From positions 1-40,679 of the forward strand of contig JAHHIK010000077.1 in assembly GCA_019358935.1 (NCBI GenBank): a DNA stretch of 40,679 bases, read 5' to 3'. Shown here piece after piece: positions 32,018-37,535 of the stretch. A model generated the notes under the pieces. The model was not told the DNA's origin. It ran no database searches and saw only the letters and a program-made list of their open reading frames with translations. The position numbers and the translations under genes are program-made. The DNA comes from Tolypothrix carrinoi HA7290-LM1 (lineage in GTDB: Bacteria > Cyanobacteriota > Cyanobacteriia > Cyanobacteriales > Nostocaceae). Within the stretch, counting starts at the first letter, position 1; every line of letters starts with the position of its first letter.

Positions 32018-32459
32018 AGTTAGGCTACAACTCCTATCCAGGAGTTCGTCTCAAGTAGGCGACCCGTCCACAGTAGTAAATATACGGAACAGATGCCAAC
32101 CTATTCTTCTCATTTTCATGAACTCTTTATATTCAATTCGTAATTTCTTCTCAAAAGAGTTTATTTTCTAAACAGCTTTTGATGCTGTTGGCTCAAAATT
32201 TCCAGTAGTTTGATGCGTGTATTAGTCTAAATTGATTTGTAGATGCTTAGTAGACTGCTCTGATGAAGAACTACTGAAAATATTAATCCGTAGACTGCTC
32301 TGTTTTTCACAAAATAATCACTTGATACAAGCATCTTGCATGTAGGCAAGCATACTCGTATATTCTCTACGTATTTAACCCTGCGTTTTTATTATAACAA
32401 ATAATTTGGGATTTCTAGTGGCGATTACTTATTCCGTCAGAGAAAAATACACATCGAAT

Positions 32460-32789
32460 GGGGGCAGGGGGCAGGGGGCAGGGGGGACAAGGGGAGCCAG
32501 TGCGTTGCGCGGGTTTCCCGCGTTGAAGCATCTGGCGTGGACGAGGAGACAAGGGGAGCCAGTGCGTTGCGCGGGTTTCCCGCGTTGAAGCATCTGGCGT
32601 GGACAAGGGGACAAGGAGGACAAGGGGGACAAGGGGAGCCAGTGCGTTGCGCGGGTTTCCCGCGTTGAAGCATCTGGCGTGGACAAGGGGACAAGGAGAC
32701 AAGGAGACAAGGAGAATAATTCTTCTTTCTCCCCATCTCCCCATCTCCCCATCTCCCCATCTCCCCCTCTCCCCAGTCCCCCACTCCCC
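32460..32789. repeat. STRR block with three identical 52-bp structured units (32491-32542, 32553-32604, 32633-32684)
   Basis: GGGGAGCCAGTGCGTTGCGCGGGTTTCCCGCGTTGAAGCATCTGGCGTGGAC x3, embedded in GACAAGG repeats. Confidence 0.93.
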
Positions 32790-34010
32790 TTAGGGCGCGA
32801 GGGCGTTACCGCGAAGTAGACTAGCAATAGTCTTTGCGGTAATTTTGAGTTGAACGATCGGGTTTGCTGGAACAACCGTTTTATACAGATAGCTATCAAA
32901 AGTTAGCCGCTGCACATCCATGTCAGCGCACATTTCTACAAATGCTTCGCGGGTAGCGTCGGAACGATAAAAGACATTTTGCAGGATGTCCAACACTTTG
33001 TAGGTGAGACCGTATTTTTTATCCCAACGCTTCAAGTAAACCTTAAGGTCTGCTTCCGTGGGAATACAAACACCGCCGTTAGACATTTCTACAATCGTTT
33101 CCGCACACATCCGCCCGGATTTTGCGGCAAAGTAAATGCCTTCACCAGAGGACTTGGTAACGTAACCAGCAGCGTCACCTATTAAAGCGATGCGACCGAC
33201 AACGCGACGGGGACGGGGATGTTCGGGAATCGGGTGTGCTTCGACTTTGATAATTTCACCGCCGGCGAGTTTTCGGGCAGCGCGAGCGCGGATACCAGCT
33301 TGTAACTGTTTGATGCTGGCTTTGTGAACCTGCATTGTGCCGGTACCGACAGCTACGTGGTCGTATTTGGGGAAAACCCAGGCGTAAAAGTCGGTAGAAA
33401 CGTCATCGCCAACGTACATTTCGGCGAGGTCGTTGTAATATGCCATTTTGTCTTGAGGTAGACGAATGCGCTCTTGGAAAGCGATCGCATAATTATAATC
33501 CCCGGCATCCATCTCTTTGGCAATGCGGGAATTTGCTCCATCTGCCCCAATAATTAAATCAACTTTCAGGGTTTTGGCAATACCCTGTGCGCCGCTTTCC
33601 GTATGGTCAACGTAATGGATGGTATACGGGTCTGTATTGTTTGTGGGAAAATCGAGTTTATGAACAGTGGCATTAATTAAATTTGCGCCGAGTTTTGCCG
33701 CACGATTTCGCAGAAAGCCATCCAGCACTTCGCGCCGGCACATTCCTATATATTCATCTTCATTTACTAGATTGATATCAACCTCACGGTTCGAGGGCGA
33801 AATCATTTTCATTTTCCGCACTCGGCGATCGATAATCTCCGGAGGCAAATCAAACTCACTCACCATGCACAGGGGAATTGCACCGCCGCAAGGCTTGGCA
33901 TTGTCTAGCTTGCGCTCAAATAGGTAAGTTTCAATTCCAGCTTTCGCCAAAGTTTCGGCGGCACAAGAACCAGCTGGACCTGACCCAACAACAGCAACCC
34001 GTAGTGTCAA
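32790..34010 (-). CDS. chlP: Geranylgeranyl reductase ChlP (406 aa)
   Basis: TTG start at 34010 with GGAG SD; VAVVGSGPAG, AKPCGGAIP and SGEGIYFAAKSG motifs. Confidence 0.95.
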   Translation of the reverse strand: MTLRVAVVGSGPAGSCAAETLAKAGIETYLFERKLDNAKPCGGAIPLCMVSEFDLPPEIIDRRVRKMKMISPSNREVDINLVNEDEYIGMCRREVLDGFLRNRAAKLGANLINATVHKLDFPTNNTDPYTIHYVDHTESGAQGIAKTLKVDLIIGADGANSRIAKEMDAGDYNYAIAFQERIRLPQDKMAYYNDLAEMYVGDDVSTDFYAWVFPKYDHVAVGTGTMQVHKASIKQLQAGIRARAARKLAGGEIIKVEAHPIPEHPRPRRVVGRIALIGDAAGYVTKSSGEGIYFAAKSGRMCAETIVEMSNGGVCIPTEADLKVYLKRWDKKYGLTYKVLDILQNVFYRSDATREAFVEMCADMDVQRLTFDSYLYKTVVPANPIVQLKITAKTIASLLRGNALAP

Positions 34011-34138: not shown

Positions 34139-34459
34139 TGGGAATTGGGAATTGGGCATCGGGCATGGGGCATTGGGGAATGGGTAATGGGTAATGGGGC
34201 AGGGGGCAGGGAGACAAGGCAGACAAGGGAGACAAGGGGCTTTTTTAAGAGGGGAAAAGGAGAAAGGGGAAAGGGGAAAGGAAAGAATTATTACCAATGC
34301 CCAATTACCCATTACCCATTACCCATTACCCATTACCCATTACCCATTACCCATTACCCATTGCCCATTGCCCATTGCCCATTACCCATTACCCATTACC
34401 CATTGCCCATTGCCCCATGCCCCATGCCCAATGCCCAATGCCCCATGCCCAATTACCAA
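34139..34459. repeat. Compound opposed STRR block
   Basis: GGGAATT/GGGCAT/GGGTAAT, GACAAGG and GGGGAAA units, then (CCCATTA/CCCATTG)n. Confidence 0.95.
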
Positions 34460-34707
34460 TTCCTCATTTTCTGCTTTTGGCACTTTCTCAGTAGTATCAC
34501 GGTTATTCCCGCGCCAGCAAATATTATTCCGGCATTTGGTGGTTCCGGTACAGCTACGGATGCTTTTTGGTTATTTTTAGTAGCCAAAGCTTGACTTACA
34601 GTGTCTGGTTGCTTGTCCGGCGCTTTGTTTTGGTGTTTGTTGTGTCCATGATGACCACCACCGAAAAGCATCATAAAAGCTAAGATTACTTTTGTTACGG
34701 CTTCCAC
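34453..34707 (-). CDS. Very small PEP-CTERM protein (84 aa) with a His-rich patch
   Basis: AGGAG SD and GTG start; hydrophobic N-terminus, GGGHHGHNKH, VPEP-TM-RKCQKQK. Confidence 0.7.
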   Translation of the reverse strand: MEAVTKVILAFMMLFGGGHHGHNKHQNKAPDKQPDTVSQALATKNNQKASVAVPEPPNAGIIFAGAGITVILLRKCQKQKMRNW

Positions 34708-36344: not shown

Positions 36345-36424
36345 AATTCACCTCTTGCTCTGGTTCCGGGTTGCTCAAATAGAAGCGAACAAACTCAAAC
36401 TAACTCAAAGTACAATATCGCTTC

Positions 36425-36768
36425 GTGAAGTACCCCATCTTGCCTTCGGCTGAAGATGGGGCGTATCCCTTATCCAGACTTAGAACAAGGACGGTTTTAT
36501 TCGTCTTCGGAGTTTCCCGTCTCAACCGCCGATGCCTCCTCAAACCCGTGTTTGATTTGGTCTTACTCCGCGTCCACAGGCAGACACCCGCCTTCCGCAG
36601 GTGTATATCTTTTCCGTACATTCCTGTGTGGCTTATCTTTTACCGCCTTCGTATATGGGGGCGAACCAGTGACCGGAATCTTTTCCCCTTTCTCTCGCTC
36701 TTAGTCTTGGCAAGCGTCTTACCGCTACTGTAGCCGTTTGTTATGAGTCGAGTGGGTGGGTTAGCAAC
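36425..36768 (-). ncRNA. Putative structured RNA with an omega/reRNA-like 3' half
   Basis: TATAAT immediately upstream; stems with G.U pairs on the minus strand (36584-36604, 36468-36490); GCCTGTGGA...GTAAGACC...GGCAT...TTGA..GGAA pattern resembling tnpB 3' ends. Confidence 0.5.
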
Positions 36769-36808
36769 CATTATAATGGTAGCATATAACGAGTGTATTT
36801 GCTACCAT
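36764..36808. promoter_or_regulatory. Palindromic bidirectional -10 element and candidate RHH operator
   Basis: ACCATTATAATGGT (36767-36780) gives TATAAT on both strands; IR ATGGTAGCA (36776-36784) / TGCTACCAT (36800-36808). Confidence 0.55.
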
Positions 36809-36953
36809 GACTCAAATTAGTTTGCGGCTATCTGAATGGGAAAAAGAACATTTGCAGAAATACTGCGAACTGACCGAACCGAATCAAACAGAGGTGTTGA
36901 GAGAATTCGTTCGTCGATTGTCAATTCCCGGGGCATTGAACCTTCTTGATTGA
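36807..36953 (+). CDS. 48-aa ribbon-helix-helix (CopG-like) protein, below the ORF-track size cutoff
   Basis: MTQISLRLSEWEKEHLQKYCELTEPNQTEVLREFVRRLSIPGALNLLD: beta strand ISLRL followed by two amphipathic helices. Confidence 0.72.
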   Translation: MTQISLRLSEWEKEHLQKYCELTEPNQTEVLREFVRRLSIPGALNLLD

Positions 36954-37154
36954 CCGCCTATCCATCCCCACCCTATAGAGGGATGGGGAATTCCGGCGAA
37001 TTCGTTAAATTTCTTTTCAACTCAACTAAAAATGCTTCACTAACCCGTCTTTTTAATTCTTTAGTGAATTCATTCTTTTCCGCATCTTTCCAATGGCATA
37101 TCTTTAACTATACCATTGGTATGATTTTTCATTGTAACTACTTAAAATTTTTTG

Positions 37155-37535
37155 TTAGGCACTTACTTTATTACCTTTCTTTCCCCATCCGGATCTAACT
37201 TTTTTATGATAAACACCCCACTCTTGAATACCCCGTTGCTGAAGAATCGCTTTCGCATCGTCTATTTCATCTTTGACATTTTCTAATACAAGTAAAAAAT
37301 TACCTTGAAACAATTGAGATTTATAAAATTTGGCTCTTTCTTTAGGGATACCCCTTCTTGCTAAAGCACTACTGATACTGTCTTCTTCACCCATTGCGCT
37401 TTTAATCCAGGCATTAGTCAACAGGGATACTTTCTCTAAAGAAAAACCTGCGTTTTTCAGTTCACCAAGGGCAGCTTCGACATCTTGACGAATTGAGAAT
37501 ATACCCACAGCGTATTTGCATGTTGTGAAAACCAT
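37155..37535 (-). CDS. General stress protein (17M/YflT-like), short form
   Basis: AVGIFS...AALGELKNAGFSLEKVSL and GIPKERAKFY...GNFLLV; AGGAG SD. Confidence 0.7.
   Translation of the reverse strand: MVFTTCKYAVGIFSIRQDVEAALGELKNAGFSLEKVSLLTNAWIKSAMGEEDSISSALARRGIPKERAKFYKSQLFQGNFLLVLENVKDEIDDAKAILQQRGIQEWGVYHKKVRSGWGKKGNKVSA

Follow-up and report, generated by a model that had tools for sequence, protein, structure and literature searches.

We analysed a 40,679-nucleotide stretch of contig JAHHIK010000077.1 (hereafter the window) from the cyanobacterium Tolypothrix carrinoi HA7290-LM1, and found that positions 36425 to 37004 (minus strand) are a 580-bp non-autonomous insertion of the IS200/IS605 type. 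Its minus strand encodes a predicted RNA of approximately 346 nt, in which a TnpB omega-RNA core follows a 5′ module of approximately 155 nt. The element is probably a member of the IS605 family in which an RNA gene has replaced tnpB, and which lives as a trans-guide parasite on TnpB borrowed from other elements. Guide-only elements, PATEs and repression by Arc proteins have already been published; the new part is a portable structured RNA module.

A mobile element without tnpB

Nine of the ten other genomes of the genus carry both flanks of the insertion site, and the element is missing from all nine. The flanks are joined exactly in genome G009 (query position 725 to 1306; 99% identity in one flank and 96% in the other), so the limits of the element are 36425 and 37004, with zero target duplication. 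One metatranscriptome contig lacks the same 580 bases. The target motif (TAM) TTAA lies directly before the left end (37005-37008, minus strand) and remains in the empty site of G009. Read on the minus strand, this empty site consists of TTTAA followed by the sequence that is found after the terminal TCAC in the window, which is the geometry of TAM and guide in TnpB homing; the predicted guide (36405-36424, minus strand) is host DNA into which transcription would continue past the right end, and it is identical to the sequence behind TTTAA. The element inserts precisely and is mobile.

A first-pass annotation, made from the sequence of the window alone, had described two subterminal hairpins around about 580 bp that lack a transposase or nuclease ORF, and both hairpins were found. 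The left end (36966-36992, minus strand) has a hairpin at 36966-36988 with a 4-nt guide, AATT, at its foot (36989-36992). The right end (36425-36461, minus strand) comprises a hairpin at 36461-36433 and the terminal motif TCAC (36428-36425), and the stretch does end in GGGGUACUUCAC (36436-36425), as first noted. The foot of the right-end hairpin is GAUACG in the window, and GAAG is the family form. In IS608, the left-end guide pairs with the target. Among 30 left ends collected by a regular expression that required TT[AT][AC], 24 have the target TTAA and 5 have TTAC, and the final base of the left-end guide follows the target, being T with TTAA and G with TTAC. The TTAC-target members, with the guide AATG (L038, L065, L077, L091 and L109), are a subfamily that represents a natural one-base target switch. 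Like PATEs (Dyall-Smith 2011, PMC3119063; Meers 2023, 10.1101/2023.03.14.532601), as far as these are described there, the element has subterminal palindromes and no terminal inverted repeats, target duplication or transposase; it also inserts exactly behind a motif of 4-5 nt and has ends common to coding IS605-type elements.

We made two observations on the surroundings of the insertion site. A 126-aa ORF at 37155-37535 (minus strand), with no Pfam match above the cut-off, is kept in relatives beside the site. Arrays of 7-mer tandem repeats and short dispersed repeats, which are typical of heterocystous cyanobacteria, occupy 32400-32900 and 34200-34500, near a geranylgeranyl reductase-like gene.

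The element is not single-copy. Five long copies and one internally deleted copy are present in the genome, the four long copies outside the window being more diverged (on contigs C4, C19, C2 and C86; RNA identity to the window is 77% for C4 and 55% for C19). The internally deleted copy on C87 (L002:1684-1823, G000:C87) is a 140-bp sibling at another TTAA site, in which 126 right-end bases identical to those of the window are fused to the tip of the left end, and the left hairpin is gone. Further afield, DNA matches were found in 23 of the 41 genomes searched, many of which reach end sequences only; in plasmid searches, matches were confined to end sequences. A search with a pattern of the RNA core gave at least 119 loci, nearly all named ones cyanobacterial; as this pattern was derived from cassette copies, most coding parents were excluded by design. 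Among the matches listed, 4 of the 119 loci have a TnpB-like match upstream, three of them abutting the core (tnpB genes of Nocardia and Chloroflexota) and the fourth 1 kb off, and just 2 of the 76 listed loci with at least 1200 upstream bases have such a match. TnpB omega-RNAs overlap or follow a tnpB gene, and the window element contains none. The right ends of the family have 93 distinct 16-nt flanks in 103 ends. These sequence comparisons place the window element in a family of IS605-type elements without tnpB that is widespread in cyanobacteria. We also noted short palindromic repeats in variable hairpin loops of seven members (L070, L081, L084, L088, L138, L148 and L003), whose core is intact, and the start of a group I intron (L135:549-624; Rfam E 0.03, cut at the locus end) approximately 90 nt beyond the right end of another.

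The omega-RNA core and the 5′ module

The 3′ half of the RNA contains a three-stem TnpB omega-RNA core (36516-36580, minus strand), in which 36524-36521 can pair with 36429-36426 as a terminal pseudoknot. In an alignment of 21 rows, 95% of the cells of the core are paired and 13 of 36 pairs have double-sided changes, which none of 500 shuffles reaches; the four-pair pseudoknot with the last bases is 96% paired, with one-sided changes only. Hairpin C (36584-36604, minus strand), the first stem of the inherited omega-RNA region, has double-sided changes in seven of eight pairs, and its equivalent in L190 aligns weakly (E 0.25) with the 3′ end of the L035 tnpB gene. Between the core and the right-end hairpin lies an optional insert (36462-36515, minus strand) with a GACG/CGUC stem and a conserved loop, AAUAAGAC, which is kept in one alignment (A3) and missing from several members, e.g. 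L008, L015, L031 and L036.

These features are those of a TnpB omega-RNA. The scaffold stops at the right end of the element, the flank supplies the guide, TAM and guide together form the target at the empty site, and the stems are accompanied by a pseudoknot with the last scaffold bases. The right-end hairpin, TCAC, the three-stem core and the pseudoknot are shared with IS1341-group tnpB elements (L035 and L274-L280, NCBIfam guided_TnpB) and, in the published description, with ISDra2. One reading frame of the core still resembles the TnpB C-terminus, and the profile of the core has its best match in the 3′ ends of L035-type tnpB genes. The 3′ half is thus predicted to be an omega-RNA descended from a tnpB 3′ end. 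Of the pairings proposed in the first-pass annotation, two proved to be family features, UCAAAC/GUUUGA (double-sided changes in five of six pairs) and ACACCUGC/GCGGGUGU (seven of eight). The others were not borne out: CCUUGUUC/GGAUAAGG is unconserved, with all its pairs formed in just 1 of 21 rows, the alternative CGGAGU/ACUCCG also occurs in 1 of 21 rows, and CACAGG/CCUGUG occurs in 11 of 39, in a segment that is already part of a covarying helix.

The 5′ half consists of two domains. Domain A (36682-36770, minus strand) comprises a 5′-terminal hairpin (36769-36759) and a stack of long-range helices that includes a three-way junction and a large internal loop. Domain B (36614-36681, minus strand) has a covarying outer helix, all seven pairs of which have double-sided changes, a conserved UGG/CCA helix and a variable inner hairpin. 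The covariation that had been proposed as a check is present in the family, in the 5′ module as in the core: 27 of the 38 pairs of the module have double-sided changes and 94% of its cells are paired, which none of 500 shuffles equals, and pairing drops to approximately 40% in slid controls. Of 61 distinct long members, 39 are in this alignment; 16 Moorena-like rows and six others were left out for the sake of the alignment. Because the helices were selected on the alignments used for counting and kin rows are not independent, the covariation counts are not probabilities. In the minus-strand reading, 117 G-U pairs stand against 11 A-C pairs, so we assign the RNA to the minus strand. Folding of the single sequence is no better than chance (z -1.56 for 342 nt and z -0.49 for the 5′ 188 nt), and since the RNA folded alone is unremarkable, the evidence for structure is purely comparative. 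An internal control agrees with a selected module, in that domain A changes more slowly than synonymous sites in the neighbouring ribbon-helix-helix (RHH) gene: identity to the window in domain A is 94% for L182, 89% for L180 and 72-75% for L008 and L107, while the synonymous RHH sites differ by 76% (L182), 85% (L180) and 76-91% over kin. Taken together, the comparative data indicate that the 5′ half is an RNA module under selection.

The suspicion voiced at first, that the 5′ part is unlike tnpB coding sequence and is an extra RNA domain rather than the result of a simple deletion, was well founded. Searches with tblastn and nhmmer against 53 tnpB loci gave no tnpB alignment above shuffled controls, and the structured module is common to two TnpB lineages (see below). 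Profiles of the domains score at best 5.0 and 12.6 bits against tnpB genes, compared with 4.4 and 9.3 bits for shuffles. Neither domain A nor domain B occurs at any of 12 loci of tnpB-coding relatives, so a simple deletion does not account for the 5′ module. Domain B does, by eye, resemble tnpB codons for DRWF..SKRC, and a remodelled coding origin for this domain is possible.

A search of Rfam 15 with 29 stretches, covering IS605-orfB, RAGATH-18, HEARO, ribozymes, riboswitches and group I introns, gave nothing at threshold. The nearest relevant row, RAGATH-18 (27.5 bits vs 44.9, E 0.1), concerns the core of a single locus of the second lineage. Likenesses to hammerhead, pistol, twister and hatchet ribozymes, group I introns and RNase P were dropped on the test of Rfam alone, which gave no match. 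The two strands of the internal loop of domain A are often ACAGAAA and GCAGAAA in alignment A2, and the window copy has diverged there; the strands may resemble the interlocking T-loops seen in RNase P and T-box RNAs.

Domain A is detected in 41 of 151 genomes of the order with one model (R2), and a longer model finds 18 of 151 genomes of the phylum. Domain A was found in none of 121 genomes of another phylum (that of G293) or of three non-cyanobacterial genomes, and its pattern had no match in viral contigs. When 21 new domain A loci were inspected, 19 continued into an omega-RNA core, 5 of them ending in TCAC and 14 in TCAA; among metagenome loci with enough sequence, domain A runs into the core in 25 of 27. 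The left end of the TCAA group is another one, shared with the tnpB element on C110; the core of the group scores 91 bits against C110 and 64 bits against C13. The TnpB proteins of this second lineage are 35-37% identical to that of L035, and a UGG..UCCA helix is visible by eye in the second lineage as well. In a tree of domain A, the TCAC and TCAA groups lie on two sides of one well-supported branch, so that a single transfer or swap suffices to explain the distribution. One helix of domain A flips from G-C to C-G between the groups, with double-sided pairs there at 10 of 18, which is not above shuffles.

Some mobile members carry a different 5′ module, or only a short leader, and domain A is therefore dispensable for mobility. 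In six minimal members (L036, L066, L076, L086, L123 and L151), the leader between promoter and core consists of a small hairpin and a hairpin with a CCAA loop. A second, unrelated conserved 5′ module lies approximately 60-250 nt upstream of a TCAC-type core in L042, L045, L061, L083 and L153; by eye it can fold into a long helix and a pseudoknot, and it could be another new structured RNA. Domain A also occurs on cores that are perhaps from further TnpB lineages (L236:1501-1836 and L190:1501-1860), for which blastn support is weak (E 0.002-0.07), and we do not claim a third captured lineage. In L232, domain A, domain B and hairpin C give way, downstream of 1600, to unrelated DNA and a sequence resembling an IS607 omega-RNA, probably because of a nested insertion.

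Promoter and predicted ribbon-helix-helix repressor

The RNA had been proposed to begin just after a TATAAT (36775-36770), with a start near 36763. The family alignment instead supports an extended -10 promoter, TG-C-TACCAT (36776-36784, minus strand), with a predicted start at about 36770-36769. The pattern TAnnnT lies 11 nt before the first conserved RNA base in 88 of 93 distinct copies (other offsets account for at most 6 of 93), and 57 of these 88 copies have the TG. As the offset of the -10 element is fixed, the terminal hairpin would sit at the extreme 5′ end of the RNA. A sigma-70 scan found no promoter, because a -35 box is absent. In three of the four RNA runs studied (of 24 listed), contigs of relatives, mostly less than 95% alike, cover 36470-36770 and little of the RHH gene or the flanks; since these contigs are strandless, give neither start nor level and may come from DNA, and since the RHH gene varies between members, they amount to a weak hint that the RNA region of relatives is transcribed.

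Divergent from the RNA is the 48-aa ORF on the plus strand that the first-pass annotation had listed (36807-36953), a predicted Arc/CopG-like RHH repressor (Pfam RHH_1, E 0.007, below the cut-off). Its AlphaFold model has a pLDDT of 82.7, and the nearest PDB folds are RHH proteins at approximately 1 Å rmsd, with E>0.6 and none at E<=0.001. Synonymous divergence from kin (pS 0.76-0.91) far exceeds non-synonymous divergence (pN 0.05-0.12), which indicates that the gene is under purifying selection. Two residues of the window copy, W11 and P26, are R in four close kin, and the gene may be starting to decay. A 9-bp inverted repeat, ATGGTAGCA (36776-36784) and TGCTACCAT (36800-36808), is the predicted operator (36776-36808, no strand assigned), and it lies over the RNA promoter and the start of the RHH gene; by eye, each RHH sequence family has its own repeat in this place. 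The window RHH is 65% identical to one that is divergent from a tnpB gene in L025, and the same RHH families adjoin tnpB in L025 and L281. RHH genes are retained in 25 of 42 long-family loci, while the TCAA loci inspected appear by eye to have none, and a search of viral contigs gave one weak relative.

Arc repression of IS605 promoters has been demonstrated (Moon 2026, 10.64898/2026.09.24.754181), and the arrangement seen here resembles the one described there, with a small divergent RHH gene and inverted sites that cover the divergent promoter. However, the Arc genes of that study accompany tnpA and/or tnpB, both of which are missing from the window element, where the regulated unit is an RNA gene. 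We found no PATE, non-coding, non-autonomous or cyanobacterial Arc case in the available parts of that paper.

A probable trans guide for borrowed TnpB

The proposal of a regulated, RNA-only unit that uses TnpB in trans, which the first-pass annotation had put forward, is supported by the copies, the covariation, the 5′ module, selection on the RHH gene and the operator-like repeat. The data point to a selfish unit that is guided to its own empty site, rather than to a supply of guides for a host function. TnpA made elsewhere would peel the element out and paste it behind TTAA, and the element's own promoter would yield an RNA of approximately 350 nt that ends in flanking DNA. A TnpB of the same lineage, from another element, would load the 3′ core; the flank-derived guide and TTAA would match the empty site left by excision, where cutting and recombination would restore the element, as in the model of Meers 2023 for TnpB. 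The Arc-like RHH protein would repress both divergent promoters. The 5′ module, i.e. the terminal hairpin with domains A and B, may protect the RNA and present it for loading or for 5′ trimming by TnpB. TnpB normally trims the 5′ end of a guide RNA from its own message (Nety 2023). A free omega-RNA arises without such a message and has to have a start and protection of its own, and a role in stability and loading is our best guess for the module; we give this role somewhat less than an even chance. In ISDra2, whose omega-RNA also has a terminal pseudoknot, the region 5′ of the 116-nt scaffold is dispensable (Nakagawa 2023, PMC10097598), so TnpB may not need the 5′ module.

The genome has seven matches to Y1 transposases, and L035-type tnpB is intact, with D-E-D motifs, in 9 of the 10 other genomes of the genus. 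The tnpB-coding relatives have TTAA at all seven recognisable left ends, TCAC ends in 11 of 12 and common hairpins, and the window's left end is also found on intact tnpB elements (L274-L276). The IS1341-group elements of the genus thus have the same left end and target as the window family, which differs from them in having no tnpB. From such matches, a working TnpB partner is likely. Trans guiding is favoured because the core stems and the pseudoknot are kept far inside the region that TnpA needs, and because the guides vary by copy and equal the flank. Several points count against it. No intact cognate tnpB was found in this assembly, where C84 is frameshifted, C95 is truncated, and contig ends interrupt C33 and C97; the core of the cassette is now distant from those of its tnpB relatives, with a top profile score of 36 bits and most scores below 21, whereas the second lineage is still close at 91 bits; and, in the window copy, the RHH protein has its two odd substitutions and the right-end foot is off the family form.

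If the core and the ends were merely a vehicle, or the part that is switched, the 5′ module could be the selected part, with an activity of its own (binding of a protein or small molecule, or catalysis). The alignments A1 and A2 have invariant unpaired letters, the loop letters of domain A are conserved across the two lineages (41-71% identity) though their TnpB proteins share only 35-37%, and a second unrelated module fronts the same core in five loci. However, domain A nearly always comes with the core (in the 19 of 21 genome loci and 25 of 27 metagenome loci given above), no ribozyme or riboswitch family matches, and some mobile members manage with a short leader; we therefore consider such an activity improbable. 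Less probable still is that the RNA is a decoy, which binds TnpB with poor or no cutting and so damps resident TnpB elements. A core that has diverged from tnpB-linked scaffolds and has acquired extra inserts would suit a decoy, and Nety 2023 describes inhibition of cleavage in cis by part of the tnpB mRNA, but the terminal pseudoknot and the exact junction of TCAC and guide are retained, and an element that damps others gains nothing for itself that could account for scattered recent insertions.

Two further explanations seem very unlikely to us. The RNA could be a host-domesticated guide gene for a nuclease-dead TnpB, i.e. a TldR-like regulator with fixed targets, and its own promoter and repressor are in keeping with this, as are 51 TnpB-family matches in the genome, not all of which were screened for catalytic residues. 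Yet the element has no adjacent TnpB, the site is empty in nine of nine relatives, and the guides vary between copies in the diverse flanks counted above. The five guides match their own genome behind TTAA only as 12-mers with two mismatches, 4 to 11 times each, which looks like chance, although this was judged without a formal control. The slimmest chance goes to an ordinary deletion remnant, a plain PATE carried by TnpA with a decayed tnpB inside, a reading that is largely refuted. The descent of the 3′ part from a tnpB 3′ end fits it, as do the likeness of domain B to DRWF..SKRC codons and a weak tblastn match of the 5′ part to the start of the TnpB zinc finger (E 0.009, in a two-sequence database), but decay is at odds with the double-sided changes of the 5′ module beyond all 500 shuffles, its slower change than synonymous sites, its conserved promoter, and domain profiles that do not rise above shuffles on tnpB genes. 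An IStron does not fit either, as there is no intron match over the RNA, which starts 234 nt inside the left end.

The trans-guide reading has precedents. Some PATEs of Geobacillus stearothermophilus bear an omega-RNA and need TnpB in trans (Meers 2023), and the window family is like these in having an omega-RNA for such use. PATEs are, however, described as deletion products with fused ends, whereas the window family has its own promoter, often a repressor, and the new covarying module. Standalone omega-RNAs of OMEGA systems (Altae-Tran 2023, PMC10691335) are likewise mobilised, RNA-only loci for use in trans with compatible effectors, and their biological role is called unknown there; the accessible text of that study mentions no accessory 5′ domain or repressor, both of which the window family has. 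In ISDra2, the 5′ region of the omega-RNA is a dispensable overlap with coding sequence (PMC10097598), whereas here it is a separate module. Guide RNAs of CsrA-associated TldRs (10.1101/2025.07.22.666180) are also TnpB-derived guides with added functional structure, upstream or extended, but, as described, they adjoin a dead TnpB and have fixed host targets, whereas the window element lacks an effector and takes its guide from the flank of the insertion. In the portions available to us of the literature (including PMC13565253, PMC3542288, PMC13639567, 10.1101/2022.10.12.511977 and the TldR study), we found neither an RNA-only family from cyanobacteria nor a 5′ module of this kind. Motif tables from surveys of structured RNAs (e.g. 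PMC8632094) or ISfinder entries could contain a description of the module.

The module is a new structured RNA motif, absent from Rfam; in one cyanobacterial order, 41 of the 151 genomes sampled have it. The family supplies testable sets of RNA, cognate TnpB lineage, TAM and exact empty site, which bear on guide production and loading when there is no tnpB message, and its natural 5′ cap might stabilise or improve engineered TnpB guides. Tentatively, and with odds well short of even, domains A and B could be a portable cyanobacterial RNA adaptor that makes any TnpB omega-RNA an independent, competitive trans-guide gene; recruitment of TnpB, of the ribosome or of some other host factor would be one way to do so. 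If so, fusion to the scaffold of a new TnpB lineage would found a new family of RNA-only parasites, and would be a natural step from transposon-bound omega-RNAs toward free guide genes. Standalone omega-RNAs have so far been regarded as leftovers of deletions. In this family the RNA-only form has been under long-term selection, which implies that the use of TnpB in trans is a real evolutionary niche.
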